Of a DNA stretch of 64,000 nucleotides, positions 3,367 through 63,880 are shown one piece after another. Source of the stretch: an uncultured Bacteroidia bacterium (GTDB taxonomy: Bacteria > Bacteroidota > Bacteroidia > Bacteroidales > F082). Position 1 is the stretch's first letter. The number at the start of each line of letters is the position of its first letter. The translations under genes and the position numbers were made by a program. The DNA lies in assembly GCA_902774295.1 (NCBI GenBank), contig CACYHP010000004.1:70489-134488 (forward strand), in the 5' to 3' direction. The notes beneath the pieces were generated by a model. The model made no database searches and was not told where the DNA came from. It saw only the letters and a list, made by a program, of their open reading frames with translations.

Positions 3367-3371
3367 AAAAT

Positions 3372-3400
3372 GTAGAGACGTCACAGTGTGGCGTCTCTAC
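3372..3400. terminator. GTAGAGACG...CGTCTCTAC hairpin (family B) between convergent genes
   Basis: 12-bp stem GTAGAGACGTCA/TGGCGTCTCTAC with a 5-nt loop, followed by GTGTTTTC. The same hairpin word recurs at 11616, 44735 and inside murB. Confidence 0.6.
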
Positions 3401-3429
3401 GTGTTTTCGATAATCTGTGTAATTATCTA

Positions 3430-6748: not shown

Positions 6749-7384
6749 ATGAAAAGAAGTTTTAAACCCGGAACAATGCTTTATCCACTGCCGGTGGTGA
6801 TGGTCTCGTGCGGCGACAGCCCCGAGAACTATAACATCATCACGGTGGCGTGGACAGGTATTTTATGCTCCGACCCGCCGATGTGCTACATATCGGTGAG
6901 AAAAGAACGCCACTCACATGCGATAATCTCCAGAACAAAAGAGTTTGTGATAAACCTCACGACAGATGCCTTGGCAAAAGCCACCGACTGGTGCGGCGTA
7001 CGCTCTGGAAGAGATCACAACAAGTTCAAAGAGATGCATCTCACGCCTGAGCAGGCCGAGGTGGTCAAAGCTCCTATGATAGCTGAATCGCCAGTAAATA
7101 TCGAGTGCAAAGTGGTTGATATCAAGGAGTTAGGCTCGCACGATATGTTTATGGCAGAGATAGTGGCAGTTCATGGTGACGAAAAATATTTCGACCCGAG
7201 CACAGGACTTTTCCAGCTCAATCAGGCCGAGTTGATAACATATTCGCACGGGAAATACTATTCTTTGGGCGAGAAAATAGGCAAATTCGGTTTCTCAGTA
7301 GAGAAAATTCAACATAAAAGGAAAACTTCCTCATCGTCATTTCGACCGGAGCGAAGCGTAGTGGAGAAATCTCCTAAAAAATAG
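6749..7384 (+). CDS. Flavin reductase-like (FMN-binding split-barrel) protein with a repeat-derived C-terminal tail
   Basis: YPLPVVMVSCG...NIITVAW.G...P....ISVR pattern of flavin reductase-like domains. The last ~17 aa (SSSSFRPERSVVEKSPKK) are encoded by the family A repeat. Confidence 0.75.
   Translation: MKRSFKPGTMLYPLPVVMVSCGDSPENYNIITVAWTGILCSDPPMCYISVRKERHSHAIISRTKEFVINLTTDALAKATDWCGVRSGRDHNKFKEMHLTPEQAEVVKAPMIAESPVNIECKVVDIKELGSHDMFMAEIVAVHGDEKYFDPSTGLFQLNQAELITYSHGKYYSLGEKIGKFGFSVEKIQHKRKTSSSSFRPERSVVEKSPKK
7336..7374 (+). repeat. Family A dispersed element, copy 1 (inside a CDS 3' end)
   Basis: GTCATTTCGACCGGAGCGAAGCGTAGTGGAGAAATCTCC. Confidence 0.85.
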
Positions 7385-8009: not shown

Positions 8010-8018
8010 TGAGCTACC

Positions 8019-8055
8019 GTCATTTCGACCGAAGCGAAGCATAGTGGAGAAATCC
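8019..8055 (+). repeat. Family A dispersed element, copy 2 (intergenic)
   Basis: GTCATTTCGACCGAAGCGAAGCATAGTGGAGAAATCC, 10 nt after the stop of the preceding ORF. Confidence 0.85.
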
Positions 8056-8086: not shown

Positions 8087-9478
8087 GTGTTAACAAAATT
8101 CCAGAACTACATTGAGTCAAACCACCTTATCAATAAAGGTGACCGCATCCTCGTCGCCCTGAGCGGCGGCGTCGACTCGATGGTTTTGGCGGAGTTACTT
8201 AGGCGGGGCGGCTATGACATAGCCTTTGCACACTGCAATTTCCATCTGCGTGGCAAAGAATCGGACGGCGATGAACAATTTGTCAGAGAATATGCCGAAA
8301 GGGTAGGAGTGAAACTCTTTGTACGCCAATTCGACACCTTGGAATACGTTGAAACACAAAAGGTCTCCGTTGAGATGGCCGCCCGCGAACTGCGCTACGC
8401 CTGGTTCAACGATTTGATTAACGCCAACGAACACATCAGTTCGACCGAATCGCATGTCCACCCTGTCATTTCGACCGAGCGCAGCGAGTGGAGAAATCTC
8501 CTCTTCGACAAGCTGGCTCTCGCTCATCACGCTGACGACCAAATCGAGACCTTCTTCATCAACCTTCTTCGTGGCTCCGGCATCAAAGGCTTGAAAGCGA
8601 TGCAGCCTCGTAACGGCATGTATATCAGACCTTTACTGTGGGCTTCACGTGAAGAAATCAAGAAGTTTGCAATTGAAAACAGCATCCAATGGCGCGAAGA
8701 CAGCACCAACAACGACACTGTCTATCTTCGCAATAAAATCCGTCATGAGCTGATGCCCGTTTTCGACTCGATTAAACCTGAAGCACGAGAAAAGATTCTT
8801 GAATCAGTCAATCACTTAGCCTCTGAAAATCAATTATATAGAGAACTTTTAAAAGAAAAGATATCTCAAATTGAAACCGTTGATGGCGTTTTGCACTCAA
8901 TTCCTAAACGTCATTTCGAGCGTAGCAAAGCGGAGTCGAGAAATCCTCTTGGTCTCCAACTCCTTTTTGAGTGGATTAGAAATTATGATTTCTCATATTC
9001 CCAATGCGAATCAATTTTCGCTGCTCTTGACGGAGAATCTGGCAAGGAATTTTATTCTGATGAGTATCAATTAGTTATCGAGAAAGAAACAATAGAAATT
9101 TTTCCTATTGATCCTGTACAAACAAGGCATAATTTATCCCAACGGGTGACAATACAACCAGTACGGACAAGGCATGCTTTGTCCCTGCTTATAACAGATA
9201 ATCCCAATATCGCCCAGCTTGATTACGATAAATTAAAACTGCCACTCCAAACCCGTTTTTGGCAACAAGGCGACCGCTTTCACCCTCTCGGGATGCGCGG
9301 CACAAAGCTCGTCTCCGATTTCTTTAACGATAATGATTTCACCACTTTTCAAAAGAAAAACACTCTGATTTTGACGGATAATGAAGGCGAAATCGTGTGG
9401 ATTGTCGGCTATCGCATCGACGATAGGTTTAAAATCACAGAAAAAACAAAAACCATTTATCAAATAGTTGCGGAATAA
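8087..9478 (+). CDS. tilS: tRNA(Ile)-lysidine synthetase, carrying several in-frame repeat insertions
   Basis: PP-loop SGGVDS, HCNFHLRG, AHHADDQIETF, C-terminal TilS domain. GTG start as in the ORF track. Confidence 0.85.
   Translation: MLTKFQNYIESNHLINKGDRILVALSGGVDSMVLAELLRRGGYDIAFAHCNFHLRGKESDGDEQFVREYAERVGVKLFVRQFDTLEYVETQKVSVEMAARELRYAWFNDLINANEHISSTESHVHPVISTERSEWRNLLFDKLALAHHADDQIETFFINLLRGSGIKGLKAMQPRNGMYIRPLLWASREEIKKFAIENSIQWREDSTNNDTVYLRNKIRHELMPVFDSIKPEAREKILESVNHLASENQLYRELLKEKISQIETVDGVLHSIPKRHFERSKAESRNPLGLQLLFEWIRNYDFSYSQCESIFAALDGESGKEFYSDEYQLVIEKETIEIFPIDPVQTRHNLSQRVTIQPVRTRHALSLLITDNPNIAQLDYDKLKLPLQTRFWQQGDRFHPLGMRGTKLVSDFFNDNDFTTFQKKNTLILTDNEGEIVWIVGYRIDDRFKITEKTKTIYQIVAE
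8437..8456 (+). repeat. Family A element, partial copy inside tilS
   Basis: CAGTTCGACCGAATCGCATG resembles the 5' half of the family A element. Confidence 0.45.
8465..8502 (+). repeat. Family A element, copy 3 (in-frame inside tilS)
   Basis: GTCATTTCGACCGAGCGCAGCGAGTGGAGAAATCTCC, translated as VISTERSEWRNL. Confidence 0.85.
8910..8947 (+). repeat. Family A element, copy 4 (in-frame inside tilS, different frame)
   Basis: GTCATTTCGAGCGTAGCAAAGCGGAGTCGAGAAATCC, translated as RHFERSKAESRNP. Confidence 0.8.
9116..9150 (+). repeat. Family C palindrome, degenerate copy plus CCCAACGG linker, inside tilS
   Basis: GTACAAACAAGGCATAATTTATCCCAACGGGTGAC, translated as VQTRHNLSQRV. Confidence 0.5.
9165..9184 (+). 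repeat. Family C 20-nt palindrome inside tilS
   Basis: GGACAAGGCATGCTTTGTCC (one G-T mismatch), translated within VRTRHALSLL. Confidence 0.75.
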
Positions 9479-11615: not shown

Positions 11616-11644
11616 GTAGAGACGTCATAATATGGCGTCTCTAC
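11616..11644. terminator. Family B hairpin terminator between convergent genes
   Basis: GTAGAGACGTCA-taata-TGGCGTCTCTAC followed by TTTTTT. Confidence 0.7.
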
Positions 11645-13045: not shown

Positions 13046-13076
13046 ATTATTTAATTTTAAATTGTTCATTTTTGTT

Positions 13077-13115
13077 GTCATTTCGAGTGTAGCGAAGCGA
13101 AATCGAGAAATCTCC
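13077..13115 (+). repeat. Family A element, copy 5
   Basis: GTCATTTCGAGTGTAGCGAAGCGAAATCGAGAAATCTCC. It forms an inverted pair with copy 6. Confidence 0.85.
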
Positions 13116-13131
13116 TTCAATTAATCAGTTT

Positions 13132-13923
13132 CTATTTTGCAGGAGATTTCTCCACTGCGCTCCATTTCATTTCGCTTCGGTCGAAATGACGGAGGGACAT
13201 CGTCTCACCGTCGAACTCCGCGTATGTGTAATCCCAGATCCAGTTTCCAACCACCGTTGTCACTGCGTGCTCGCCGGTTTTGTACTGCATCGGCTTGTGC
13301 TGGTGTCCGAACACAAAGAAATCTATTGTAGGGTCTTTCTGCGCCTCGGCCATCGCGTATTTGTACAGCCGTGTGTTCTCGACGTCTTTATAGAAATTGC
13401 CTTCCGACTCTTTTTTAAGCTTTTTGACTCTATGATTATGAGACCATTTCAACGCTACTCTTATTCCAAAATCAGGGTGAATATGACGGAAACACCATTG
13501 TAAGAACCTGTTTTCGAACACGCTCTTCAGGAATTTGTAGCCACCGTCGCCTTCACCACGACCGTCGCCGTGAACCAAAAAGAATTTCTTGCCCTTTAGC
13601 ACCATTATTTCTGGATCTCTATGCACCTGAATGCCAATCTCTTCCTGCAGATACGAGAATGTCCAGAGGTCGTGGTTGCCAGCAAAGAGATGCACTGGGA
13701 TGCCGCTGTCGATAAACTCGGCGAGCTTTCCAAGCAACCTTACATGACCTTTCGGAATCACCGTTTTGTACTCGTACCAGAAATCGAACAAGTCGCCCAT
13801 AAGGAAGAGCTCCTCGCAGTTTTTTTTGATGGAGTCAAGAAACTCGAGAAGCATTTTCTCCCGTCGCTGGCTGTCTTCGAGGGTCGGTACACCGAGGTGG
13901 AAATCTGTTGCAAAGTAAATCAT
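13132..13923 (-). CDS. lpxH: UDP-2,3-diacylglucosamine diphosphatase with a repeat-derived C-terminal tail
   Basis: Calcineurin-like metallophosphoesterase motifs (DFHLG, GDLFDFW, GNHD). It lies beside lpxK. The tail RHFDRSEMKWSAVEKSPAK is encoded by family A copy 6. Confidence 0.8.
   Translation of the reverse strand: MIYFATDFHLGVPTLEDSQRREKMLLEFLDSIKKNCEELFLMGDLFDFWYEYKTVIPKGHVRLLGKLAEFIDSGIPVHLFAGNHDLWTFSYLQEEIGIQVHRDPEIMVLKGKKFFLVHGDGRGEGDGGYKFLKSVFENRFLQWCFRHIHPDFGIRVALKWSHNHRVKKLKKESEGNFYKDVENTRLYKYAMAEAQKDPTIDFFVFGHQHKPMQYKTGEHAVTTVVGNWIWDYTYAEFDGETMSLRHFDRSEMKWSAVEKSPAK
13142..13190 (-). repeat. Family A element, copy 6 (longer variant, inside the lpxH 3' end)
   Basis: The reverse complement reads GTCATTTCGACCGAAGCGAAATGAAATGGAGCGCAGTGGAGAAATCTCC. 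Confidence 0.85.
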
Positions 13924-19050: not shown

Positions 19051-19097
19051 GGATTTCTCCATTTTGCTGCATTGCATTACGCTTCAGTCGAAATGAC
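19051..19097 (-). repeat. Family A element, copy 7 (intergenic, longer variant)
   Basis: GGATTTCTCCATTTTGCTGCATTGCATTACGCTTCAGTCGAAATGAC. Confidence 0.75.
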
Positions 19098-19107
19098 GGA
19101 GAGAATG

Positions 19108-20232
19108 TTATCTTCTGCCTCCACCGACACGACCGCCGCCGCCACCTATACGACCACCGCCGCCTCCAACGCTGCCCCCGCGTGAGCCTGAGTTATAACT
19201 GCCGCTGCTTCTTGGAGCGCTGGTGTTGCTTCTGGTGGTGTTAGTATTAGGTCTTGTCGTCGTGGTGTTGTTTCTCTGCGGTCTGACATATTCCGAACTT
19301 GAACGTGACTGACGGTTGCTGTTAGCCGGAGTATACGTCTTGTTCTGTGAAGACGGTCTCGTCGTCGACTGACTTGGTCTCGTTGTCGATTGACTCGGTC
19401 TGCTTGCTGACTGATTTGGTCTTGTTGTTGATTGACTTGGCCTTGTTGTCGACTGAGTCGGTCTTGTTGTCGTCTGATCCGATCTTCTTGCAGAGCTGTT
19501 CGTTGGACGTGAAATGTTGTCTGAAGAACGTCTTGAGCTCTCGCGGTTGCTTACAGCTGTATTGTTATGATGATCGGCGCTTCTTCTGCTGCTCACAGCG
19601 CTGTTTCCGCCGCCGTTATTATGACCGGATGCTCTGCGACCACTATTATTATTATAGGTGTTTATGCCACCGTGATGTGTTCCATGATGGCTGTGGTTGT
19701 AATAATTGTAATAACCTGGTCCTGGTGGATAGTATGGGTGATAAGGATAGTATGGAGGATAATATGGGTAATAGCCGCCCCATCCCCAGTAAGGATCCCA
19801 TGCATAACCCCAGTAATATGGGCTGTAGCCCCAATAAGGTCTGTATGCCGGATACCAGAACGGATCCCAGAATGGGTCCCAATAGCCGTAACCGACTCCG
19901 AATCCTACTCCAAAACCTACGCCAAAATCAACAGTTACACGGGTCTCAGGAGCCTCGTCAACGATGTAAACGGTGTCTACAACTCTGTCGATGCTATCCG
20001 TAACGGCATAATCTTTATAAATTTTGCTCGTTTTATCCTGGTTGTTGCTCTTTTCCGATTTCACTGAGTTGTTGTCAAAATAGCCGTAATTTGAGGTCAC
20101 GAGGGACTTATCGCTCTGCGAATCACTGTCGTATGGTGAATAATACGCATCGTCGTTGATAACGTTATTGCTTGATGCACAAGCAGTTAACAACACTGTT
20201 GCGGCTGCGATGATGATGAAACTCCTTTTCAT
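19108..20232 (-). CDS. Lipoprotein with extreme low-complexity regions (aromatic/Pro-rich, SQSTTRP repeats, Gly/Arg tail)
   Basis: Lipobox LLTAC|AS after MKRSFIIIAAATV (start set at the ATG at 20230-20232). See the related finding. Confidence 0.6.
   Translation of the reverse strand: MKRSFIIIAAATVLLTACASSNNVINDDAYYSPYDSDSQSDKSLVTSNYGYFDNNSVKSEKSNNQDKTSKIYKDYAVTDSIDRVVDTVYIVDEAPETRVTVDFGVGFGVGFGVGYGYWDPFWDPFWYPAYRPYWGYSPYYWGYAWDPYWGWGGYYPYYPPYYPYHPYYPPGPGYYNYYNHSHHGTHHGGINTYNNNSGRRASGHNNGGGNSAVSSRRSADHHNNTAVSNRESSRRSSDNISRPTNSSARRSDQTTTRPTQSTTRPSQSTTRPNQSASRPSQSTTRPSQSTTRPSSQNKTYTPANSNRQSRSSSEYVRPQRNNTTTTRPNTNTTRSNTSAPRSSGSYNSGSRGGSVGGGGGRIGGGGGRVGGGRR
19355..19480. repeat. Six 21-nt tandem repeats encoding (S/T)QSTTRP heptads
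   Basis: GGTCTCGTCGTCGACTGACTT-type units at 19355, 19376, 19397, 19418, 19439 and 19460. Confidence 0.85.
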
Positions 20233-20272
20233 ATTAAATTCACTTTTTATTATTACTTTGCAAAAATTTTTG

Positions 20273-20280
20273 TAATTTTG
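20273..20280 (+). promoter_or_regulatory. -7 box (TAATTTTG) for proS
   Basis: Matches TAnnTTTG 42 nt upstream of the ATG. Confidence 0.45.
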
Positions 20281-20321
20281 CACACTGAAAAACTAACAAA
20301 AATCGTACCAAACTTTTAAAA

Positions 20322-28228: not shown

Positions 28229-28284
28229 GTTTACTGTTTACCGTTTACCGTTTACTGTTTACTGTTTACTGTTTAGCGTTTATT
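28229..28284. repeat. Heptanucleotide array, (GTTTACT/GTTTACC) x 8
   Basis: Units every 7 nt from 28229. On the minus strand they read (AGTAAAC)n and supply the last codons and stop of the TrmH-family gene. Confidence 0.85.
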
Positions 28285-28790
28285 TGCTGGCGGTACCATT
28301 CGAAGAGGGCTACGGAGGCGGCGTGGGAGACATTGAGTGAGCGGGTGGGACCTGGGATAGGGATGTAAACAACCATATCGCATTGATTTAAGATTTCCTC
28401 GTGGATTCCATGGCTCTCGTTGCCTACGATGAAGGCGGCATCAGCAGGAAGCTCGGTCTCGTAGATGTTTGTCGCATTCGTCGCAGTTTCTATAGCGACG
28501 ATTTTTTTATTTGATGGTACCAGTTTACGCAGATCATTCTCCTCGGTGAAATACCATTTTATGTTGTCTTTACTTGAAGCGGCGCATTTTCTCACCCTGC
28601 TGAGGCTGTGCGTGGGCTCCGTGCCGAGAAATATCATCTCTGAAGCCCCGATATTGTCGGAAAGACGAATCATCGAGCCCATGTTGTCGGGCGTAAGGAG
28701 ATTGTCGGCAAGGATGATGGGGCGGGGAATAGAATTGTATAGAGACTCGGGATGAGATTCTTCAAAAAGCTGGTTTGATTTGATATACAT
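28266..28790 (-). CDS. TrmH/SpoU-family RNA 2'-O-methyltransferase
   Basis: SpoU motifs (NMGSMIRLSDN.G; VGNESHG; IPIPG...SLNVSHAASVALFEW). Start set at MYIKSNQ to avoid overlap with the upstream gene. Confidence 0.7.
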   Translation of the reverse strand: MYIKSNQLFEESHPESLYNSIPRPIILADNLLTPDNMGSMIRLSDNIGASEMIFLGTEPTHSLSRVRKCAASSKDNIKWYFTEENDLRKLVPSNKKIVAIETATNATNIYETELPADAAFIVGNESHGIHEEILNQCDMVVYIPIPGPTRSLNVSHAASVALFEWYRQQINAKQ

Positions 28791-30851: not shown

Positions 30852-30923
30852 TGACCCCGCCGGGATTCGAACCCGGACCGAAGGAACCGGAATCCTTAAT
30901 TCTATCCATTAGACTACGGGGCC
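30852..30923 (-). tRNA. tRNA-Arg (anticodon CCG)
   Basis: I folded the cloverleaf by hand. Acceptor GGCCCCG/CGGGGTC, anticodon arm AAGGA-TTCCGGT-TCCTT, T-arm CCGGG-TTCGAAT-CCCGG. CCA is not encoded. Confidence 0.9.
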
Positions 30924-32884: not shown

Positions 32885-35800
32885 ATGAAAAAACTCGTAT
32901 TCTTCCTTAGCATCGTTTTATCTGCTGTTTTTTCGGCAATTGCCCAAAGTCCTGACCCGATTATGGCGGGCTACACTGTCACTTCAGGCACAGCAGGAGT
33001 CAACAATGAAGAAAACTATGACAAGCTGTTAGATGGCAGAAATTTCACCAAATGGTGTATTCTTGACATTGGTGATTGCGCCTATGTTGAGTTTCACGTC
33101 GTCTTTCCTTTTATTCCTACCGGCTACGTCATGACCACAGCTAACGACGTCAGCACATACCCGGGCCGCAACCCAAAAGACTGGGTTATTAAGGCAAAAC
33201 TGAATCTTGAAGACGAGTGGACTACCATAGCCAGTGTTACTGACGACAATGTGCTGCAATTTGAGAATAAGACCAACTATAGTTTTGAGATTTCCAACGA
33301 CCAACTATACAAATATTTCCGTTTCGAAGTCACAGCGGTGTGGGGAGGAGGACAATTTCAACTTGGTGAGTTGATGCTCAGAGGATCAGTAAATGAAAAC
33401 CCGGATATTGTTGTTGTCACAGACTACAACCCCAAAGCTGGTACGGAGGGCGCCAGTAGCAATGAAAACTATCAGAAATTGGTGGATGACGATCCAAACA
33501 CGAAATGGTATGTCAATAGTTTGACGGATACAACATTTATAGAATTCCATCATGGCAGTCCATTCATTCCTACCGGCTACATCCTGACCACAGGCAATGA
33601 CAACAGCTCACACCATGGCCGCAATCCCAAAGACTGGGTCATCAAGGCAAAGCTGAATCAAGAAGACGAGTGGACCACCATCGCCACCGTCACCAACGAC
33701 AACGTGTTACAAGACGTCAATAATACTGACTTTGAGTTTGGTATCGACAACAACGCAAAATACAAATTCTTCCGTTTTGAAATCTTGTCGGTACAGAACG
33801 GTAGCAAGTTCCAACTCGGTGAGTTCAAGTTCAAAGGGAGGTCTGTGCTGAACACTGACCCGATTATCGCTGGTTTTATGCTCGTAGATGCCGCTTATTC
33901 CTCTAATCCCCAAAATCTTGTAGATAACAACAGAAATAATTATTGGGATTGCCGTAGTCAGGATCATTATTACTATGTGGACTTTTACAGCGACAAAGCT
34001 ATCATCCCCACAGCCTATATTATGACAACAGTCCAGGATTTTGGCCCCTTCTGGGGGTGTAACCCGAAAGCATGGAGTATCGAAGCAAAAATGAGCTTTG
34101 ATGACGAATGGCAATGTATTACCCAAGGTTACGACCTTATCCCGAATGAGACCGGAAATGACTTCGAGTTTAGCATCAACAACGACAAAGCCTATCGCTA
34201 TTTCCGTTTCGCCGCAACAGCAGTAAACTACGAATTAATGGAGGTGTTCAGGCTCTCCGAGTTACGACTTAGAGGCCGTGTTGTCGATGACTACACTTAT
34301 TATGTCAAGGACGTGATGCTTATCGGTGGCTCCGAGACCGAGGTAAACGACCTGAAAAAGTCATATCGAAAACAGGGTTGGAAGAGTTATGACTATGACC
34401 TTAACAAAGGCTGCGGCAGCAGTAGCGACTGGATTTACTTACTCTATAAAGACGAGTATAATCCAAGTCTCGTGAACAAAGGCTATGCTACTGACTTTTA
34501 TTTATGGACACAAAACTCAAGTGCTACCGAAACTCGTACCTACGACGGAAGGACCTATTATCTTGTGCCTTACGATGGCGGCGAGCATTTCAAAAATGTC
34601 AAAGGCGACCTGAACAGCCATGCCGGCGGTTCTGACATACATCTGTATTACACCAGAGAGGCTTTTCCAGACCATCGCAGTGTTGACAATATCTACTTCA
34701 ACTCGACAAAAAGCGGAGCTTTAGGCTCAGGAGGCAGCTCTTCCGGTTATGACTTGAACTCTGGTGCAGGCGGCGATTATATATATATGCACTTCACCAC
34801 TTCACAAACAATCGGCACCATGCCAGTGGGAATATTGAACGAAAGTGTTGTCGGCTACGGCTCCATAAACATCTCGGGCACAGCTTATGATTCCGACGAT
34901 TTGTCTGCAAGTGTACCTTTACATGCCTGTCTTTACAAAGAAGACGGCGTCACTTTATACGTACAAAAGGATTTTCTTGCAGACCTGCCTAACAATGGCT
35001 TTTCCAAAAACTTGTTTGGCATCCTTCCTGGCACTTATAAACTTAAGCTCCTTGCCACCGACATTGATGGGTATGGCGATATCCAGATTGGAAACATTCA
35101 GACCATCACTGTGACACAAGGCCCTGAAATCATAGAGGTTGGCCATGGCGATACAGAAAGTTTTTTCCCTATGTATCATTTATACCAATATAGCATGTCT
35201 CAACAAATCTACAGGGCGAACGAACTACAAAGTGCTGGCACTATATCAGGTATCGCATATTATTATAAACCTTACGCTGGTGTCGGACCCTATGAGATGA
35301 ACAACGTGCAGATTTATATGCAACATACCGACAAAGATTATTTTGAAGACGATAATGACATCATTCCCATTGATTTAAGTCAAAAGGTGTTTGAGGGCAC
35401 TGTCGTGGCAGAGAACAAAGGTTGGGTGGAATTTTCATTTGATACACCTTTCGAATATGACGGGATACATAATATCCTGATCAGTTTCAACGACCCTGCA
35501 CCCGAATACTACCAGAGTGGTTGGGGGCATCGATTCCGTATCAATCGCTCACCTAATACGACACATCTATACTTGTCGAGAACCAATCCTATCGATTTGG
35601 AAAACTGGACCGACTACCACTTCGTCGATTCGCGTAGGAACGACCTCCAGTTTTTTATCAAACCATCAGGTAGCCCCAAACCCGCCAACTTAAGGTTAGC
35701 CACATGTACCGCAGATATGACGGAAATTGCTTGGAACGCCCCAGCAACCAACCAGAGCATATATGGCTACCTATATCAATTCAAGAGAGGAGATGAGCCA

Positions 35801-38203
35801 TGGAGCACCGCTGTTGAGACATTCAACAAAACCGTATCCTTTGATGATCTGGTAAACGACATTGATTATAGATTCCGCGTGAAGACACTCTATAACAACA
35901 ACGAGACAAGCATTTTCTCTGAAATATCGTTTAGACTACCGACAGATTTACCATTTGAAAACAACTTTGAAGAGGATTATGATGGCATGACCGTGTTAAG
36001 TATCGATTGGGAACATGGTGGAATACAAACCAGAGAAAGTTATTCCGGTAATAAAAGCTTTAATTTTATGGCCCTCTCAGATGGATACAGTCCTCAATAC
36101 TTGATATCTCCGTGTTTTCCAAACACCGAGAAGATCGCGATGTCGTTCTATTTCAAAGGACCAACTTCTAATGATGAAAGAATAGTTTTAGGGTATTCAA
36201 CCTACGACAACAACATTGGTTCGTTTACGTGGCTCGATGATATTGGTACCCGCACAGAGACCTGGACCTATTATAGGAGCACATTCCCAGTCGGCACGAG
36301 ATATATAGCCATAAAATATGTAACCGTTGGTCCTGTTGGCACCTATATAGACGACATCCGTTTCGAAAAAGCTACAACTCATAAGATGCCGACAAACTTA
36401 ACCGCAAGCGATCTTACCCCTAACAGCGCCACAATAACATGGAAGGCTCCACTAGGGGAGACACCTATTGGCTATGGATATCAAATCATGAAAACCAGCG
36501 ATGCAATATGGAGCGCTGATATGGGTGTCGTGGAGGAAAATATGGTTTCTTTGGCCCACTTGCTTCCTGACACCGAGTATGATATCCGTGTTAAAGCGTT
36601 GTATGATAACGGAGAAAGCAGCTACTTTGTAAGATACAGGTTTATGACTGATGCCAAGCCTGTAATATTGCCAATCTACCAAGGCTTCGAAAACGGCATG
36701 AATGGTTGGCGTGTCGTAGACGGACAACGACACACGGAGATTATGCGTTACATAAATCCACATGGAGGCGGTTACACATTTTATTTCGATGATGAGGAAA
36801 ATGAACCACAATATTTGATTTCTCCTGAATTCATTAGTATCGAAGACGTGTATTTGAGCCTCTTTTATAAAAGCTATCAAATAGATGATAACAGTAGTGT
36901 CGTCTCATTCTTTTATGTGGGATACTCTACCACCACTAATGATATTGACTCCTTCATTTGGAGTGAAAGAATGGCAGCCCTGGGAAATTGGGCAGAGTAC
37001 ACAGCCACCTATCCGACGGACACCAAATACATCGCCATCAAATGGGAACAATTATGTTATCTTTACATTGACGACGTCTCCATCTGGACAACTATGAGTC
37101 ATCCGATAGCAAAAGCCACTAACTGGGACGAGCCTTCTCGCCCTATCGACGGATGGAATTTCATTGCTTCACCCGTTGATGGAAGTGTCGCACCTATTGA
37201 TGTGAAAAAACTCATCTTTAGCATCAACGATATTCCGTATGTCAATTCCGGAGAATATGACCTCTACCGTCTCAACAACACCACTTGGGAGAACTTCAAA
37301 GCCCATCAAAATGGCTTTATGCTTGAAAACGGAAAGGGTTATCTTTATGCCACAGCAGCAGATGTTACAATCCAGTTCATCGGCCCTATCTACGAAGGTG
37401 ACACCAAGACCGTAAACATTAGCCAAGGCAACAACCTTGTAGGCAATCCGTTCTTTGCCGATGCATACATCGACAGACCTTATTATAAAATGAACGCTGC
37501 CGGCACCGATATCGAGGCCGTCACGGATTACATCAACAATCCTATCCCTAAATTCACCGGCGTGGTGGTGACAGCCGATGACAACGAGACCGTCACCTTC
37601 AGCAAGGAACAACCTGCGACGACAACATTTAACAATGGAAGCATACAGATGACCTTGATGAAAGCCAATGTGCGCGGCGACGCTGTGCAAGACAAGGCGA
37701 TAGTGAGCTTCAACGAAGACACTAAACTCGAGAAGTTCATCTTCAACGACAACCATGCCAAACTCTACATCCCACAATCGGGCGAAGACTATGCCATAGC
37801 ATTCTCCAACCGTCATGGAGAGATACCGCTGCATTTCAAAGCTAACGAGCCGGGCAGATACACCATCGCCTTCGATGGCGACATGAGAGGCGCCACACTT
37901 ATCGATAAGATTGAAGACACGACAATAGACCTCGGCGCTAACGACAGCTACACCTTTGTGGGCTCGCCTGCCGACAAGAAAGACAGGTTCGTGATTGCGT
38001 TCGCGTCAGCATCTGACACCTTCGCTTATCAGGATGGTAACGACATTATCGTCACCGGTGAAGGCGAACTACAAGTGTTCGATATCATGGGACGCATGGT
38101 GATGACACAGCACGTCAACGGTATCCAATCGATAAACACAATGCAACAAGGCATTTATGTCTTTAAGCTGAATGGCATGACACAGAAGATGGTTGTCAGA
38201 TAG
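32885..38203 (+). CDS. Giant T9SS-sorted surface protein (3 discoidin-like repeats, beta-prism-like triple repeat, Fn3 and choice-of-anchor-J-like modules, type A CTD)
   Basis: Signal peptide. Three ~150-aa repeats (NYDKLLDG..TKW..., FIPTGY..TT.ND...GRNPKDWVIKAKL). Fn3-like PANLRLA.../PTNLTAS... segments. C-terminus ELQVFDIMGRMVMTQ...GIYVFKLNGMTQKMVVR. Confidence 0.75.
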   Translation: MKKLVFFLSIVLSAVFSAIAQSPDPIMAGYTVTSGTAGVNNEENYDKLLDGRNFTKWCILDIGDCAYVEFHVVFPFIPTGYVMTTANDVSTYPGRNPKDWVIKAKLNLEDEWTTIASVTDDNVLQFENKTNYSFEISNDQLYKYFRFEVTAVWGGGQFQLGELMLRGSVNENPDIVVVTDYNPKAGTEGASSNENYQKLVDDDPNTKWYVNSLTDTTFIEFHHGSPFIPTGYILTTGNDNSSHHGRNPKDWVIKAKLNQEDEWTTIATVTNDNVLQDVNNTDFEFGIDNNAKYKFFRFEILSVQNGSKFQLGEFKFKGRSVLNTDPIIAGFMLVDAAYSSNPQNLVDNNRNNYWDCRSQDHYYYVDFYSDKAIIPTAYIMTTVQDFGPFWGCNPKAWSIEAKMSFDDEWQCITQGYDLIPNETGNDFEFSINNDKAYRYFRFAATAVNYELMEVFRLSELRLRGRVVDDYTYYVKDVMLIGGSETEVNDLKKSYRKQGWKSYDYDLNKGCGSSSDWIYLLYKDEYNPSLVNKGYATDFYLWTQNSSATETRTYDGRTYYLVPYDGGEHFKNVKGDLNSHAGGSDIHLYYTREAFPDHRSVDNIYFNSTKSGALGSGGSSSGYDLNSGAGGDYIYMHFTTSQTIGTMPVGILNESVVGYGSINISGTAYDSDDLSASVPLHACLYKEDGVTLYVQKDFLADLPNNGFSKNLFGILPGTYKLKLLATDIDGYGDIQIGNIQTITVTQGPEIIEVGHGDTESFFPMYHLYQYSMSQQIYRANELQSAGTISGIAYYYKPYAGVGPYEMNNVQIYMQHTDKDYFEDDNDIIPIDLSQKVFEGTVVAENKGWVEFSFDTPFEYDGIHNILISFNDPAPEYYQSGWGHRFRINRSPNTTHLYLSRTNPIDLENWTDYHFVDSRRNDLQFFIKPSGSPKPANLRLATCTADMTEIAWNAPATNQSIYGYLYQFKRGDEPWSTAVETFNKTVSFDDLVNDIDYRFRVKTLYNNNETSIFSEISFRLPTDLPFENNFEEDYDGMTVLSIDWEHGGIQTRESYSGNKSFNFMALSDGYSPQYLISPCFPNTEKIAMSFYFKGPTSNDERIVLGYSTYDNNIGSFTWLDDIGTRTETWTYYRSTFPVGTRYIAIKYVTVGPVGTYIDDIRFEKATTHKMPTNLTASDLTPNSATITWKAPLGETPIGYGYQIMKTSDAIWSADMGVVEENMVSLAHLLPDTEYDIRVKALYDNGESSYFVRYRFMTDAKPVILPIYQGFENGMNGWRVVDGQRHTEIMRYINPHGGGYTFYFDDEENEPQYLISPEFISIEDVYLSLFYKSYQIDDNSSVVSFFYVGYSTTTNDIDSFIWSERMAALGNWAEYTATYPTDTKYIAIKWEQLCYLYIDDVSIWTTMSHPIAKATNWDEPSRPIDGWNFIASPVDGSVAPIDVKKLIFSINDIPYVNSGEYDLYRLNNTTWENFKAHQNGFMLENGKGYLYATAADVTIQFIGPIYEGDTKTVNISQGNNLVGNPFFADAYIDRPYYKMNAAGTDIEAVTDYINNPIPKFTGVVVTADDNETVTFSKEQPATTTFNNGSIQMTLMKANVRGDAVQDKAIVSFNEDTKLEKFIFNDNHAKLYIPQSGEDYAIAFSNRHGEIPLHFKANEPGRYTIAFDGDMRGATLIDKIEDTTIDLGANDSYTFVGSPADKKDRFVIAFASASDTFAYQDGNDIIVTGEGELQVFDIMGRMVMTQHVNGIQSINTMQQGIYVFKLNGMTQKMVVR

Positions 38204-38584: not shown

Positions 38585-38985
38585 TGGTGGAGCTGGAGGG
38601 AGTCGAACCCTCGTCCAAACAAGGAACAATTATGCTTTCTACATACTTATTCTGTTGTTGGTTTTCGAGTTGTGCAAGGAAACAGACATCCTAATCGCAA
38701 CCTTATCTCCTTGAGTTTCACGACGTTGCCGGAGTTTCCGCGTCGCTATCCCGAAATTGCTGAGCACCTCGTTGTCGGACCGGAATCGGGAGGCTCCATC
38801 CGCGAGATGTCTCGTCCTCTCACCTTGTGAAAGGATAAAGCTTCAATCTACTGTGCTTCGATTAAGCAGCGAGAGCGTAAGTATTTTCGCCAATTAATTT
38901 TTTGCAGTCAAGATTTACGAGCGTCACTGCGAGGCTCGGTATGCTTACATAACCCTTCTACAAGCTGTCAAAACCGGTCAGCCCC
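38585..38985 (-). ncRNA. ssrA: tmRNA (transfer-messenger RNA)
   Basis: 5' end GGGGCTGACCGGTTTTGACAGC. 3' end GGACGAGGGTTCGACTCCCTCCAGCTCCACCA. The tag reading frame GGCGAAAATACTTACGCTCTCGCTGCTTAA encodes GENTYALAA* at 38862-38891. Confidence 0.92.
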
Positions 38986-40932: not shown

Positions 40933-40960
40933 GTTTATTGGTTATAGTTTATTGTTTATA
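40933..40960. repeat. Heptanucleotide array, (GTTTATT/GGTTATA) x 4
   Basis: Units at 40933, 40940, 40947 and 40954. Confidence 0.7.
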
Positions 40961-41027: not shown

Positions 41028-41100
41028 GCGGATTTAGCTCAGCTGGCAGAGCGGAAGCTTCCCAAGCTTCAGGTCGCGGGTTCGAGCCCCGTAATCCGCT
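41028..41100 (+). tRNA. tRNA-Gly (anticodon CCC)
   Basis: Acceptor GCGGATT/AATCCGC, anticodon arm GAAGC-TTCCCAA-GCTTC, T-loop TTCGAGC. Confidence 0.9.
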
Positions 41101-41112
41101 CTTTCAGTCGAC

Positions 41113-41187
41113 GGAAGCTTAGCTCAGTTGGTTCAGAGCGCCTGCCTTACAAGCAGGAGGTCGCTGGTTCGAACCCAGCAGTTTCCA
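41113..41187 (+). tRNA. tRNA-Val (anticodon TAC); CCA encoded at 41188-41190
   Basis: Acceptor GGAAGCT/AGTTTCC, anticodon arm CCTGC-CTTACAA-GCAGG, T-loop TTCGAAC. Confidence 0.9.
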
Positions 41188-44665: not shown

Positions 44666-44734
44666 ATTGAGTAGTTTTTAACATCGCAAAGTTAGAGAAT
44701 GGAAATGAAAAAATCAAGAAAAAAATAAAAAAAA

Positions 44735-44761
44735 TAGAGACGCCATAGTATGACGTCTCTA
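44735..44761 (-). terminator. Family B hairpin terminator for the MFS gene
   Basis: TAGAGACGCCA-tagta-TGACGTCTCTA, with a T-run on the minus strand. Confidence 0.7.
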
Positions 44762-44783
44762 TAATTATTAATAGGAATTCTTA

Positions 44784-46403
44784 TTATTCCTTGATGTTTG
44801 GCTCTTCCAAGCCAAGGTGTTTCTTCTTGTCAACGACCTTGAGGTAGAGACCGATGAGCAATGCTGCGATGCCGAGGCATGCGAGCATGATTAAAGCCCA
44901 TGTGTAGTTGAGCTCGTCTGGGTTTGTGCCGACAGGGTTGGTGTTTTCAAGAACCTTACCGATGAGCAATGGGAACAGCCACAGACCGATGTTCTGGATC
45001 CAGAAGATCAGAGCGTAAGCTGAACCGATGATCTTTTCGTCGACGAGCTTCGGAACGCTTGGCCACAAAGCTGCGGGGACCAATGAGAATGAGGCTCCGA
45101 GCACCAAGATTGTGATGTAAGCCACAATTGTGCCGCCTGCTGCGCTGCCTTTGAACAATGGCAGGATGAAAGCGAATGTCAAGTGGCAGATAACCAGCAG
45201 GATAGAGCCGATCATAAGCATTGAAGCGGCTTTTCCTTTGTGGTCGACGTAGCTGCCGAGGATAGGGGTGATAGCCACTGCGAGGAGCGGGAACACTGCG
45301 AAGATCGTCTCAGCGGTGCCGCGCATGTAACCCATGTAGCAATAGATAACGAGGGCTACGACAGCGAAAGCCATCAAACCGAATTTCAGACTTTTCTTCT
45401 TTGAGAAGTTGCTTGCGAATGAGCAGACAGCGACGAGCAGCATCACGATGTACTGCACGATGGTCACTGAGCTGCCGCCCCAGAATGTGTTAGGGTCAGC
45501 CTCGACGAGTGTGAGGTTGCATTGGAGCATGTTAACAGCATATTTCTGGAATGGGAAGATTGCTGAGTAGTAAAGCACGCAGAGCAAAGCCACGAGCCAG
45601 AAACCGAGGCTTGACAAAATCTTGCCTATATCGCTGACTTTGAAAGGCTCGTCAACAGCTTCAGCCTCGCCTGTCTGTGAGTCGAGCTTCTTATCCATGA
45701 AGAAATAAACCACAAACATGATGAGGGCGATGCAGAGAAGCACCACACCGAATGCCACTGAACGGCTCACGTTGATGGTTCCGCCGAGTTTTGCGAAGTA
45801 AGGTGAGAAAATCATACATGTGGCGACGCCGAGACGTGCCAAAGCCATCTCTGAACCCATTGCCAATGCTGTTTCACGACCTTTGAACCATTTCACGATA
45901 CCGCGGCTGACAGTGATACCTGCCATCTCAGCGCCGCAGCCGAAAATCATGAAGCCGACAGCTGCCATCTTTGCTGAAGCAGGCATGCCTCTGTAGAACG
46001 GAGAAACGCCAAGTTCTTCAAAAACCGGGATGTAGTTGAGGTTTTCGGTGAACCATTTTTCAAGACCGCTGCCAAAGAAACTCTCGCTGATGGCGTAATA
46101 TTTGATCAAGCCGCCGACGAGCATCACAGCGCCTGACAAAACTGCTGTGAAACGAACTCCCATCTTGTCGAGGATGATACCTGCGAAGATGAGGAAGAAA
46201 ACGAACACGTTTAGGAAGGTCTCAGAACCCTGCATTGTTCCGAATGCGAGGCTGTCCCAACCACGCTGTGTCTGCATCAAGTCTTTGATAGGGGACAAGA
46301 TGTCCATGAAAATGTAGGCGCAGAACATTGCCAACGCCAACAGCAGCAAAGCGATCCATCTCATGGCCGCATTGTCGCGTAAAGTCTGAATTTTTTCTGT
46401 CAT
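44784..46403 (-). CDS. MFS transporter
   Basis: 539 aa, about 12-14 TM helices, MFS-like loop motifs. Confidence 0.7.
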   Translation of the reverse strand: MTEKIQTLRDNAAMRWIALLLLALAMFCAYIFMDILSPIKDLMQTQRGWDSLAFGTMQGSETFLNVFVFFLIFAGIILDKMGVRFTAVLSGAVMLVGGLIKYYAISESFFGSGLEKWFTENLNYIPVFEELGVSPFYRGMPASAKMAAVGFMIFGCGAEMAGITVSRGIVKWFKGRETALAMGSEMALARLGVATCMIFSPYFAKLGGTINVSRSVAFGVVLLCIALIMFVVYFFMDKKLDSQTGEAEAVDEPFKVSDIGKILSSLGFWLVALLCVLYYSAIFPFQKYAVNMLQCNLTLVEADPNTFWGGSSVTIVQYIVMLLVAVCSFASNFSKKKSLKFGLMAFAVVALVIYCYMGYMRGTAETIFAVFPLLAVAITPILGSYVDHKGKAASMLMIGSILLVICHLTFAFILPLFKGSAAGGTIVAYITILVLGASFSLVPAALWPSVPKLVDEKIIGSAYALIFWIQNIGLWLFPLLIGKVLENTNPVGTNPDELNYTWALIMLACLGIAALLIGLYLKVVDKKKHLGLEEPNIKE

Positions 46404-61798: not shown

Positions 61799-62703
61799 AG
61801 ACTGAGATAAAACTTAAGGGCTTGACCCTTAAAAACCCCGTCATGACGGCGTCAGGCACGTTTGGCTACGGCGAGGAATACGCTGATTTTGTTGACCTTT
61901 CAGAACTCGGCGGCATCATAGTGAAAGGCACTACCTTGCATCACCGTGAGGGAAATCCTTACCCGAGAATGGCTGAAACGCCAATGGGAATGCTTAATTG
62001 TGTAGGTCTTCAAAACAAAGGCGTAGATTACTTCATTGAAACGATTTATCCGAGAATCAGACATTTCGACACTAATGTTATTGTTAACGTAAGTGGCTCA
62101 AACATAGACGATTACGTTGCTGCTGCCGCTAAGATTGACGCACTTGACGACATCCCGGCTATCGAGCTTAACGTGTCATGCCCTAATGTGAAACAAGGTG
62201 GAATGGCGTTCGGTGTGACATGTTCGGGCATCGAGCAGGTGACTAAGGCGGTGCGTGAGGTCTATCACAAACACCTGATGGTGAAGCTTTCGCCAAATGT
62301 GACCAACATAGCTGAGATAGCTCTTGCTGCTGAGGCTGCTGGTGCCGATTCCGTCTCTTTAATTAATACGTTGCTCGGAATGGCTATCGATGCGGAGACA
62401 AGAAAGCCGGTGCTGTCGATGGTGACTGGCGGCTTGTCTGGCGCTTGCGTGAAGCCTGTGGCGTTGCGCATGGTCTGGCAGGTGTCGAAAGCCGTGAAGA
62501 TCCCTGTAATAGGCTTAGGAGGCATCTCATCAGCCACAGACGCTATAGAATTCTTACTTGCGGGTGCATCGGCAATACAGATTGGCACAGCAAACTTCAT
62601 CGACCCCGCAATCTCCGCAAAGGTCGCAAAAGGCATTGTGGAATACTGTGAGAGACAGGGAGTGGGGGATGTCAACGAATTAATCGGAGGGTTGGTTATA
62701 TAA
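61792..62703 (+). CDS. pyrD: Dihydroorotate dehydrogenase (class 1B catalytic subunit)
   Basis: [41 protein letters not shown]. Confidence 0.9.
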
Positions 62704-63880
62704 TATTCACCTCCGGCTTTATCTCAATTCCAAATTTTTGGTATACTGAATCCTGGATTTTTCGCATAAGATCCAGGATTTCTTGTGGTTTGCCGCCACC
62801 ATAATGCACCAAGACTAGCGCTTGCTTGTCCCATACGCCGACGTGGTTTTCACGGTAGCCTTTCCAGCCGGCACGGTCGATGAGCCATCCTGAAGGGATT
62901 TTGACCTCACTCGAAATGACGGTCTCTCGTTTGTCATTTCGACCGACCGTAGGGAGCGGAGAAATCTCAACTGGATAAGACGGCACATCTGGATATAATT
63001 CCTTGATTTCCATATATTTATCCGTTGTTACTATCGCATTCTGGAAGAAACTTCCGACACTGCCGACGACACCTACCTCGGGCAGCTTCTCGGCACGAAT
63101 CGTTTTTACCGTCGTTGCCACATCCTGCAATGTCGGATTGGTGATGTTTTTGCTTGCCAAATAATTGCGAATGTTGCCGTAATCCAATTTCAATTCACCA
63201 TGTTTTTTTAATACAAAATCAACGGCGAAAATCAATGGATATCCATCAATTTTGTACAAGGCATGCCTTGTACCTACGGATAATGATTTGTCATCCCGTT
63301 GGGACAACGCATGCGTTGTCCGGTTGGAAATCAATTCTTTAAAAACCGAATTCCGATATGAAAACCGGCATTCCTCATTGCTGAAAATCTTGGTTTGTCC
63401 TGTCGCCAAATCAATCGTATGCACATGATAAATAGTGTCTTTCACTTCGGCACCGTAGGCTCCGATGTTCTGAACCGGTGCCGCTCCGACCTTGCCTGGG
63501 ATGTCGGCGAGATTCTCCAAACCATAGAGGTTTTTCGAGATGGTGTAGTCGACGAAATCTTTCCAAACCTCACCGCTATAACAACGGATTTTCACTGTCT
63601 CGCCGGTCTCTTCAAGCGTCTCGATGCCTTTTATGTTAGGGTAGACCACGAAACCATCGAAAAACTCAGAGGAGAAAAGTATGTTGCTGCCGCCACTTAA
63701 GATTAGGATGCGAGACGTGTTGCCGTTGGGACGTGACACTGTCGCGTCTCTACATGCGATAAAATCAGGATTTTGCAATAAATCGCTGATATCTTCCAAA
63801 GATTTTACCTCTTGAAAAAACCTCGTCTTAACATCAAAACCGAATGTGTTGAGCTCACGCAACGAAAAATTCTTCTCCAT
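62696..63880 (-). CDS. murB: UDP-N-acetylmuramate dehydrogenase, carrying several in-frame repeat insertions
   Basis: [28 protein letters not shown] and SAGWLID-like ([13 protein letters not shown]) motifs. Start set at MEKNFSL. At 394 aa it looks longer than MurB proteins as I remember them. Confidence 0.8.
62908..62968 (+). repeat. Family A element, copy 8, with a 13-nt inverted fragment (inside murB, read antisense)
   Basis: CTCACTCGAAATGAC...GTCATTTCGACCGACCGTAGGGAGCGGAGAAATCTC, translated on the minus strand as [21 protein letters not shown]. Confidence 0.8.
63254..63273. repeat. Family C perfect 20-nt palindrome inside murB
   Basis: GTACAAGGCATGCCTTGTAC. Confidence 0.85.
63302..63321. 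repeat. Family C perfect 20-nt palindrome inside murB
   Basis: GGACAACGCATGCGTTGTCC, preceded by the linker CCGTTGGG. Confidence 0.85.
63712..63754 (-). repeat. Family B-like hairpin element inside murB
   Basis: The minus strand reads TGTAGAGACGCGACAGTGTCACGTCCCAACGGCAACACGTCTC. It shares TGTAGAGACG.CACAGTGT with the terminator at 3371 and the linker CCCAACGG with tilS and the other murB insert. Confidence 0.65.

Follow-up and report, generated by a model that had tools for sequence, protein, structure and literature searches.

In-frame copies of three REP-type repeat families at three sites of murB in an uncultured rumen Bacteroidales

Introduction

The Rickettsia palindromic element RPE-1, about 100-150 nt long and carried by an obligate intracellular alphaproteobacterium, is a selfish palindrome that is tolerated in essential genes and translated as an extra surface segment of the protein. 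Here we analyse shorter palindromic repeats inside murB, the gene for UDP-N-acetylenolpyruvoylglucosamine reductase, on a 64,000-nt stretch of DNA from an uncultured rumen Bacteroidales (hereafter the window: positions 70,489 to 134,488 of the forward strand of contig CACYHP010000004.1, assembly GCA_902774295.1). Repetitive extragenic palindromic (REP) sequences of the GTAG and CGTC types have been reported in frame within genes of Opitutus terrae and, as RPE-4 and RPE-6, of Rickettsia conorii (PMC3733652). The same survey includes RPE-4 and RPE-6 in a CGTC superfamily, in which the CGTC tag often becomes TGTC and stems begin with AT, and it records GTAG repeats in Proteobacteria, Cyanobacteria, Chloroflexi and the Planctomycetes-Verrucomicrobia-Chlamydiae group, not in Bacteroidetes (PMC3733652). 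REPs with a foot on both sides, GT[AG]G at the 5' end and C[TC]AC at the 3' end, belong to subclass 2.4 of the REP-associated transposases (TnpA-REP or RayT), which corresponds to Bertels group 4, has been described for Cyanobacteria and Bacteroidetes, and also has REPs inside the tnpA-REP genes themselves (PMC6006769). REPINs, finally, are REP doublets mobilised by RAYTs; they are extragenic, occur in Gammaproteobacteria and go with RAYTs of groups 2 and 3 (PMC3116915).

The murB gene of this bacterium carries in-frame copies of three REP families, here called A, B and C, at three tolerant sites. An original prediction, made from the sequence of the window, had proposed that three repeat families lie in frame in murB, and all the features that it listed for this gene are present where it placed them, including the peptides of 24 and 15 residues, both found in an open reading frame (ORF) of 432 aa whose real start is the ATG at 63880. 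It had also named two findings that would speak against it, conservation of the segments at protein level and confinement of the palindromes to murB. Neither was found: the sites are empty in relatives, and the palindromes recur in tilS, in genes of relatives and on at least 120 metagenome contigs.

Results

Three patchily filled sites in an intact murB

The gene and its three blocks are as follows; loci of other genomes are given below by L numbers and homologous proteins by P numbers.

62696-63880, minus strand: murB, 394 aa from the ATG at 63880
63716-63760, minus strand: site-1 block, 15 codons in place of 2 in empty alleles
63725-63753, minus strand: site-1 remnant GTAGAGACGCGACAGTGTCACGTCCCAAC, a decayed family C GTAG double-foot REP, then a second CACGTCTC foot
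63236-63337, minus strand: site-2 block, a REP dimer, 34 codons in place of 5
63302-63321: palindrome B2 GGACAACGCATGCGTTGTCC, perfect over 20 nt (10+10)
63274-63301: linker between B2 and B1, 28 nt
63254-63273: palindrome B1 GTACAAGGCATGCCTTGTAC, perfect over 20 nt (10+10), with GTAG before it on the coding strand
63236-63253: extra 18-nt in-frame insertion AAAATTGATGGATATCCA (coding strand), encoding KIDGYP
62906-62966, minus strand: site-3 block, 61 nt where the empty allele has 10 nt, a net gain of 17 codons
62932-62968, plus strand: full family A unit of site 3, read antisense as 12 residues
62923-62931: spacer of site 3
62906-62922: truncated inverted unit of site 3

The murB ORF is intact and retains the motifs YRNS, GSFFQN and PEVN. 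A pseudogene was considered and rejected, as both the ORF and the catalytic motifs are preserved. Its MurB homologues combine PF01565 with PF02873, and the protein encoded here matches the MurB structures 4JAY and 7ORZ in the PDB (Pseudomonas aeruginosa MurB, E = 1e-63). Among the 120 best homologues, at 68-93% identity, lengths range from 335 to 447 aa. Net gains of 13, 29 and 17 residues at sites 1, 2 and 3 account for 59 residues, which is the difference between the 394 aa of the protein encoded here and the 335 aa of P0102 and P0119, homologues with none of the three blocks; P0020 and P0040 have site 1 only.

Protein alignments, together with a codon alignment of 34 genomic loci from rumen and hindgut Bacteroidales metagenome-assembled genomes (MAGs), resolve three variable sites in a MurB that is otherwise tightly conserved, and each site is patchily filled or empty across the gene tree. 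Site 1 is empty in L005, L014, L016, L017 and L029; site 2 in L004, L009, L013, L014, L016, L017 and L024; site 3 in L001 and L004 (GTTGACATCAATTCCGTCAAAATC). The range of orthologue lengths and this patchwork bear out the proposal that the murB segments are repeat-derived in-frame insertions. All three blocks fall into gaps on alignment to P. aeruginosa MurB, and they appear as unstructured, low-confidence coil in an AlphaFold2 model that is itself poor (mean predicted local distance difference test score, pLDDT, 62.7; shallow alignment). The comparators are too divergent for exact boundaries or target duplications to be definable at the three murB sites. From one lineage to another, one and the same site can hold a different repeat family.

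Site 2 and the family B palindromes

Both family B, to which the 20-nt palindromes belong, and family C, that of the GAGACG hairpin, consist of GTAG...CTAC double-foot REPs. For the two perfect palindromes of site 2, both confirmed at 63254-63273 and 63302-63321, no match is expected from shuffled sequences, and the sole other match in the window lies in tilS at 9165-9184. The dimer folds with -30.9 kcal/mol (z = -4.25) and can also be folded as a single hairpin. In the alignment, 98% of the hairpin cells of the arms are paired, with three compensatory pairs. The feet are partly lost in murB: B1 keeps its 5' GTAG, B2 is without GTAG and has a CAAC variant on its 3' side, and the right foot at site 1 is decayed.

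The original prediction had further suggested that a linker word next to the palindromes marks a modular composite element. The word does recur near the murB palindromes and in tilS (the 10-mer CCGTTGGGAC at 63296 and 63723; CCCAACGGG in tilS at about 9139). Its occurrence twice within 1.3 kb is not beyond chance alone, another exact 10-mer pair being present, and as independent proof of a composite element the shared linker was rejected for lack of significance on its own. Of the composite element with a CCCAACGG linker, the part that stands is that site 2 is a REP dimer; the word at site 1 is simply a decayed arm, GTCCCAAC being a degenerate form of the CGTCTCTAC arm. At site 2, CAACGGG represents a variant form of the 3' foot of the REP together with its outer stem. 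GTCC-CAACG(G/C)GAT also follows the hairpin in L145 and L171, and in L145 CAACGGG pairs with an upstream CCCGTTG.

Three side observations concern this site. The 18-nt KIDGYP insertion, which the earlier reading had missed, is restricted to the window, L001 and the closest proteins; together with its flanking backbone (63228-63253) it makes up a near-palindrome of 26 nt, and it resembles a palindromic duplication of local origin. Repeats of a fourth type (GAGTTTGGAGTTTGAAG-like) occupy site 2 in L007 and L029 and are also found at TilS site T3 of the homologues P0287, P0288, P0327 and P0353, their peptides reading GVWSLKCEV or NFKLQTSN according to strand. The horse-gut clade L020-L028 has further hairpin-like inserts at murB site 2.

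Site 1, a decayed family C copy

Family C copies have the form GTAGAGACG...CGTCTCTAC. At site 1 the expected GAGACG...CGTCTC segment is present (63712-63750), and the 5' part of its coding strand shares 21 of 25 bases, counted by eye, with the intergenic hairpin at 3370. The match that had been claimed stands; the hairpin itself is degenerate, the segment folding no better than shuffled sequence (z = 0.05). The copy in the window is a decayed one, the orthologue L024 holding an intact hairpin at the same site (GTAGAGACGCGACATTGTCACGTCTCTAC). Short versions occur in L003 and L015.

Site 3 and family A

Family A units have the form GTCATTTCGA...GAGAAATC. Of 28 copies, 17 begin with CGTC and the other 11 with TGTC, each then continuing with ATTTC, and a body of about 20-30 nt separates ATTTC from GAAAT. 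Taken singly, units do not fold better than shuffled sequence does (z = -1.4 to +0.9). The site-3 block is the remnant of an inverted doublet of this CGTC/TGTC-tagged family. Its full unit (62932-62968) shares 89% identity with the copy in tilS at 8464-8500. The family A copy and the inverted fragment of the original prediction are both present, with one correction: the inverted arms TCGAAATGAC and GTCATTTCGA, perfect at 62911-20 and 62933-42, measure 10 nt and not 13 nt. Full doublets occupy site 3 in L002, L008, L011 and L013, and in L016 the element lies in the opposite orientation.

Elsewhere in the window, family A is found at the following positions, and inverted pairs occur in the window (13077/13144) as well as in L002, L004, L010, L018 and L024.

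13076-13190: inverted doublet of units 13076-13113 (plus strand) and 13144-13190 (minus strand), one long hairpin of -48.6 kcal/mol
7335-7374, plus strand: unit at the 3' end of a flavin-reductase gene, lengthening the C-terminal tail
8018-8055, plus strand: intergenic unit directly upstream of tilS
19051-19097, minus strand: intergenic unit

The right unit of the 13076-13190 doublet forms the C-terminal tail of a metallophosphoesterase ORF. Compared with L181, the unit at 7335-7374 is a clean insertion of about 40 nt with no target-site duplication (a single case), and the unit at 8018-8055 is missing in L181, where the stop TAA of the preceding gene and the ATG of tilS overlap (TAATG).

As side observations, the empty site 3 of L001 reads GTTGACATC against GTTGAGATTTC in the window, so that the empty allele resembles the ends of the element, and at tilS site T2, where a full family A unit lies in the window (8901-8960), the sequence of L181 is CGTCATTTCGACCGC. 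Such empty alleles could be deletion remnants or could reflect insertion guided by microhomology.

A second decorated gene and other hosts

The second gene with several repeats lies 54 kb away:

8087-9478, plus strand: tilS, with two family A units (8463-8500; 8909-8946) and one decaying REP dimer (9117-9184)

The PP-loop domain of TilS is split, the protein has 24 extra residues relative to Aquifex TilS, and TilS homologues range from 427 to 518 aa, the three sites being each empty, singly or doubly filled, or tandemly expanded. The REP dimer shares its TRHALS reading frame with the one in murB and decays differently in the window and in L181. In the TilS homologues P0288, P0276, P0287, P0265 and P0249, a 27-nt piece of family A, VIS(T/N)ESHAHP (9 aa), is repeated in tandem up to about five times ahead of a complete unit, at the site that corresponds to 8425-8500 of the window. 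Because the piece is tandemly repeated before the complete unit, family A also grows by local tandem duplication inside the tilS gene.

The 64-kb window contains four family B hairpins, all in genes, and four family C copies, three of them intergenic. A scan of metagenome contigs for GKACAASGCATGCSTTGTMC returned at least 120 loci, with 127 copies among the matches listed. The great majority of the family B copies at these loci, on contigs of 28-56% GC, read gtag-GGACAAGGCATGCCTTGTCC-ctac, and their outer stems vary in sequence yet remain complementary. Taking a copy as deep within a gene when it lies at least 90 nt inside an ORF of at least 200 aa, 24 of the 127 copies among the matches listed are deep and 103 are not; across these metagenome loci the core lies mostly between genes. 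The deep copies are read as VGTRHALSL in 16 cases and as RDKACLVPT in 8, and never in the third frame, which holds the TAG of the GTAG foot. All 10 host ORFs of deep copies that were tested are bona fide genes; the hosts include pyruvate:ferredoxin oxidoreductase, radical SAM, HsdS (three copies), peptidase U32, Mur ligase, PolI 5'-3' exonuclease, class II aminoacyl-tRNA synthetase and TIR-NB-ARC-WD40 genes. The mixture of families at single sites of murB, the use of both orientations at site 3 and the clean 40-nt insertion at the flavin-reductase 3' end are what insertion followed by purifying selection predicts, and are not predicted by selection for the peptides.

In the relatives, a Methyltransf_32 gene and a pyrK-like gene were also seen to contain family C hairpins in frame, and a family B hairpin lies 32 nt into a TPM-domain ORF, where it may be a 5' leader. 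These in-gene hairpins lie at L007 660, L008 2328, L010 2800 and L011 2283, at L006 6545, and at L001 6192, L004 5684, L009 6197, L011 5721 and L029 6216.

RayT-like genes near the repeats

An E. coli RayT sequence served as a lead only, and its matches were then checked against NCBIfam, Pfam and the PDB. Among the 120 palindrome-selected loci listed, nine have a RayT-like ORF that contains the palindrome or lies within 0-140 nt of it; of the 60 loci selected by murB, only one has such an ORF. The RayT-like ORFs match the NCBIfam entry NF047646 ('REP-associated tyrosine transposase') with E = 1e-13 to 9e-21, have E. coli TnpA-REP (4ER8) as their best PDB match and carry NHIH, WQ and YIxNNP motifs; their closest relatives are annotated across many Bacteroidota, several being named RayT by JGI. 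Repeat-flanked genes of this kind were found with family B in L150, L129, L073, L141, L083, L106 and L171; in L141, the RayT-like ORF is about 7 kb from the palindrome that matches the pattern, and variant hairpins lie inside the gene and 44 nt away. L041, a more distant hindgut Bacteroidales MAG with a MurB of about 53% identity, has GTAGAGACGTATCAC repeats of the family C type (GTAGAGACG) on either side of its RayT-like gene.

We further observed in-frame REP hairpins within RayT-like genes, between the HUH and Tyr motifs (L171 614-659, L150 8216-8307, L073 and L106). The L171 gene holds a THALSQRD variant, as in murB (an 11-residue in-frame REP peptide). A query with an IS200 TnpA was set aside, as it returned only an ordinary IS200-like gene in L047. 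At the Rfam gathering threshold the repeats have no match, the hits in the window being a tmRNA and tRNAs only, and a full-text literature search for the repeat or peptide strings returned primers only or nothing.

Intergenic copies and the question of termination

Three family C copies lie between genes, with hairpins of 13-15 pairs:

3370-3402, plus strand: intergenic family C REP, 4 nt past the stop of gene 1534-3366, z = -8.3, terminator-like
11616-11644, plus strand: intergenic family C REP between convergent genes, terminator-like
44734-44762, minus strand: intergenic family C REP, lying downstream of gene 44784-46403 (minus strand), terminator-like

Each is a GC-rich hairpin followed by a T-run at a gene end, and the suggestion that the hairpin word GTAGAGACG...CGTCTCTAC serves as an intergenic terminator elsewhere in the window was confirmed in that all three copies are terminator-like. 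The original prediction went further and supposed that the same hairpins could cause transcriptional pausing or premature termination inside murB. No T-run follows any of the intragenic murB hairpins and none was flagged by a terminator pattern scan, the copy at site 1 is degenerate, the elements are dispensable in close relatives and the same repeat lies inside many unrelated genes. Because the T-run is lacking and close relatives do without the elements, the sequence gives premature termination no support.

Mosaic alleles

The closest genome, L001, has a backbone nucleotide identity of 93% and a murB in which sites 1 and 2 are filled and site 3 is empty; in L004, the sister of L001, site 2 is empty. 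In a sliding-window comparison, identity between murB of the window and murB of L001 is about 100% along two long tracts and drops to about 85% in the remainder, and L001 and L004 are 98-100% identical save for the tract with site 2. The murB alleles are recombination mosaics; therefore, the patchy filling of the sites comes largely from homologous exchange of filled and empty segments. The switches of identity between about 100% and about 85% fall near the REP-bearing sites 2 and 3.

Other features of the window

Some further features were noted. At 19354-19500, in the minus-strand ORF 19108-20283, a 21-nt repeat (CGGTCTCGTCGTCGACTGACT-like) that has no relation to the REP families is present in about seven tandem copies, and intergenic runs of a GTTTAC(T/C) heptamer lie at 28229-28289 and 40933-40958. 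Within the 1772-aa ORF 32885-38203, an internal repeat of 279 nt (33106-33837 and 34180-34224; 72% identity, spacing 453 nt) suggests a protein built of repeated domains. Several genes have promoter motifs of the Bacteroidetes type (TTTG...TAnnTTTG) upstream. RNA genes were identified with Rfam:

38585-38985, minus strand: tmRNA gene
41028-41100, 41113-41187 and 30852-30923: three tRNA genes

Discussion

We propose that small non-autonomous REP-type repeats landed inside murB, persisted there as tolerated passengers and were shuffled by recombination, and we give this explanation a probability of roughly 80%. According to this proposal, small palindromic repeats that do not encode their own mobility would insert into murB, and those inserts would survive that add whole codons, offer a stop-free frame and lie at sites tolerating 13-29 extra residues. 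Families B and C would be mobilised by a RayT/TnpA-REP enzyme (HUH-Y1, subclass 2.4) acting on single-stranded hairpin DNA, whereas for family A the functional unit would be the inverted doublet. Filled and empty murB alleles would then be shuffled among related species by homologous recombination, and the inserted copies would either retain their palindromic arms or decay. The encoded peptides would be by-products of the DNA repeat and not selected protein features, and outside genes, hairpins at gene ends could serve as terminators. That a RayT-type enzyme mobilises families B and C in this genome we infer from the RayT-like genes beside the repeats in other genomes. The lack of a target-site duplication at the clean family A insertion relative to L181 fits Y1-type 'peel and paste' transposition and not a DDE-type MITE (miniature inverted-repeat transposable element), which we disfavour on account of this single case.

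Several observations weigh against the proposal. A RayT-like gene was found neither in the window of 64 kb nor in any of the 29 closest murB loci, and the RayT-like ORFs elsewhere score 51-74 bits, below the NCBIfam equivalog cut-off of 80, and near the Pfam cut-off for Y1_Tnp. The murB blocks replace a few codons and are not pure insertions, their boundaries are ambiguous, and their junctions share microhomology with the element ends. The arms at site 2 are 82-100% identical, compared with about 55-57% for the linker and for third codon positions, and such conservation would not be expected of a neutral passenger unless it had recently spread or been gene-converted. Constraint, gene conversion or recent spread may each account for the upkeep of the arms. 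In addition, the production and activity of the extended MurB are predicted only.

Among the alternatives, the one that survives best, and which we nevertheless consider unlikely, is that the intragenic hairpins are selected functional elements of RNA or DNA, acting as pause sites in transcription or translation, attenuators of murB expression, determinants of RNase action or transcript stability, or sites of RayT-targeted exchange. The stable fold at site 2, the near-complete pairing of its arms with compensatory changes and their identity relative to a 57% linker are all of the kind such elements would show; the same hairpin family is terminator-like between genes, and recombination breakpoints lie close to sites 2 and 3. 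However, the intragenic hairpins have no T-run, and each is absent from close relatives with an intact murB. The copy at site 1 has decayed, the tilS dimer is decaying along different paths in the window and in L181, unrelated repeats take the same sites in other lineages, and the same REP sits in many unrelated genes. The high identity of the arms, moreover, goes together with identity of the flanks, which fits recent recombinational spread. In a more specific version, REP arms inside genes are actively maintained and either promote allele exchange in a homing-like manner or tune the expression of murB and tilS by co-transcriptional or co-translational pausing at domain boundaries; hairpin selection or RayT-dependent gene conversion could maintain them. 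We hold this to be improbable as well, but if it is true that arms are actively maintained within genes, the question arises of what REPs do there.

It is less probable still that the palindromes are local in origin, through template switching or quasi-palindrome correction, or that they are artefacts of assembly. The 18-nt insertion at 63236-63253 does resemble a local palindromic duplication, and the junctions do share microhomology with the element ends, but identical sequences of 20-28 nt with GTAG/CTAC feet in tilS, in other genes and on at least 120 unrelated contigs are hard to reconcile with events confined to murB. An assembly artefact was rejected, as the same filled alleles recur with intact ORFs in independent MAG projects (RUG, RGIG, red deer, ENA and JGI).

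The least credible alternative, that the murB segments are selected lineage-specific protein loops in which palindromic DNA is incidental, can appeal to the frame that is always kept and to the recurrence of CRDA... and THALSQRD in many orthologues, but it is largely refuted by perfect 20-nt DNA palindromes that selection on a peptide would not lead one to expect, by the same DNA between genes and, in two different frames, in unrelated genes, by a site-3 element that yields unrelated peptides in its two orientations (L016 against the others), and by sites that are empty in close relatives together with a linker peptide that is not conserved.

If REP-type repeats are indeed passengers of murB, then MurB, an essential protein and drug target, and TilS can absorb about 15% extra residues from selfish DNA, and the natural filled and empty alleles provide a map of insertion-tolerant sites. 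For annotators, the peptides VGTRHALSL, RDKACLVPT, EISPLP..GRND and SFRPERS..EKS are signatures of repeat DNA, which inflates length variation, splits domain matches and can seed spurious ORFs or homology in metagenome annotation. In-frame insertion of REP and RPE-like elements is thereby extended to abundant free-living gut Bacteroidales. What is added here is an essential gene of a Bacteroidales bacterium that holds three families at once, with another decorated gene at a distance of 54 kb, the occurrence of filled and empty alleles in dozens of MAGs from rumen and hindgut, and a near-invariant 20-nt core that, judging from sequence, is linked to a Bacteroidota-wide RayT family.

Comparison with known systems

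Families B and C come closest to subclass 2.4 (PMC6006769), with which they share the GTAG/CTAC feet, the NH[IFV]H, WQ and YIxNNP motifs of the RayT-like proteins and the in-frame REPs within the transposase gene. They differ from it in that copies here occupy three sites of an essential housekeeping gene and have partly lost their feet. Compared with intrinsic terminators, the intergenic family C copies have the hairpin and T-run that define them, whereas the murB copies do not. The intragenic REPs of the earlier survey (PMC3733652) are likewise short tagged palindromes, often dimers that encode 20-30 residues, inserted in frame and sometimes present twice per ORF.

Family A shares with the CGTC superfamily (PMC3733652) the CGTC/TGTC tag, the AT at the start of the stem and the inverted dimers. 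In contrast to CGTC-1 to CGTC-4, which have a stem of 8-9 bp and a loop of 4-5 nt (PMC3733652), its body is much longer and its single units are unfolded; because this stem and loop are lacking, we do not file it under CGTC-1 to CGTC-4, and the resemblance is one of tag only. Like REPINs (PMC3116915), the family A doublets (13076-13190, and site 3 in L002, L008, L011 and L013) fold as one hairpin; unlike them, family A is without GTAG. The repeats also recall the QMITEs of Coxiella burnetii and other MITEs (PMC5896051; reviewed in PMC10969869), both being small, non-autonomous and adding residues to proteins. DDE-derived MITEs have terminal inverted repeats and target-site duplications, and no such duplication is seen at the clean filled/empty pair described here.

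The repeats of murB can, by description only, be likened to RPEs as functional analogues, both lying in frame in protein genes that are otherwise intact. The differences from RPE-1 are that the host here is a free-living gut anaerobe, that the units measure 20-40 nt and that filled and empty alleles are exchanged by recombination.

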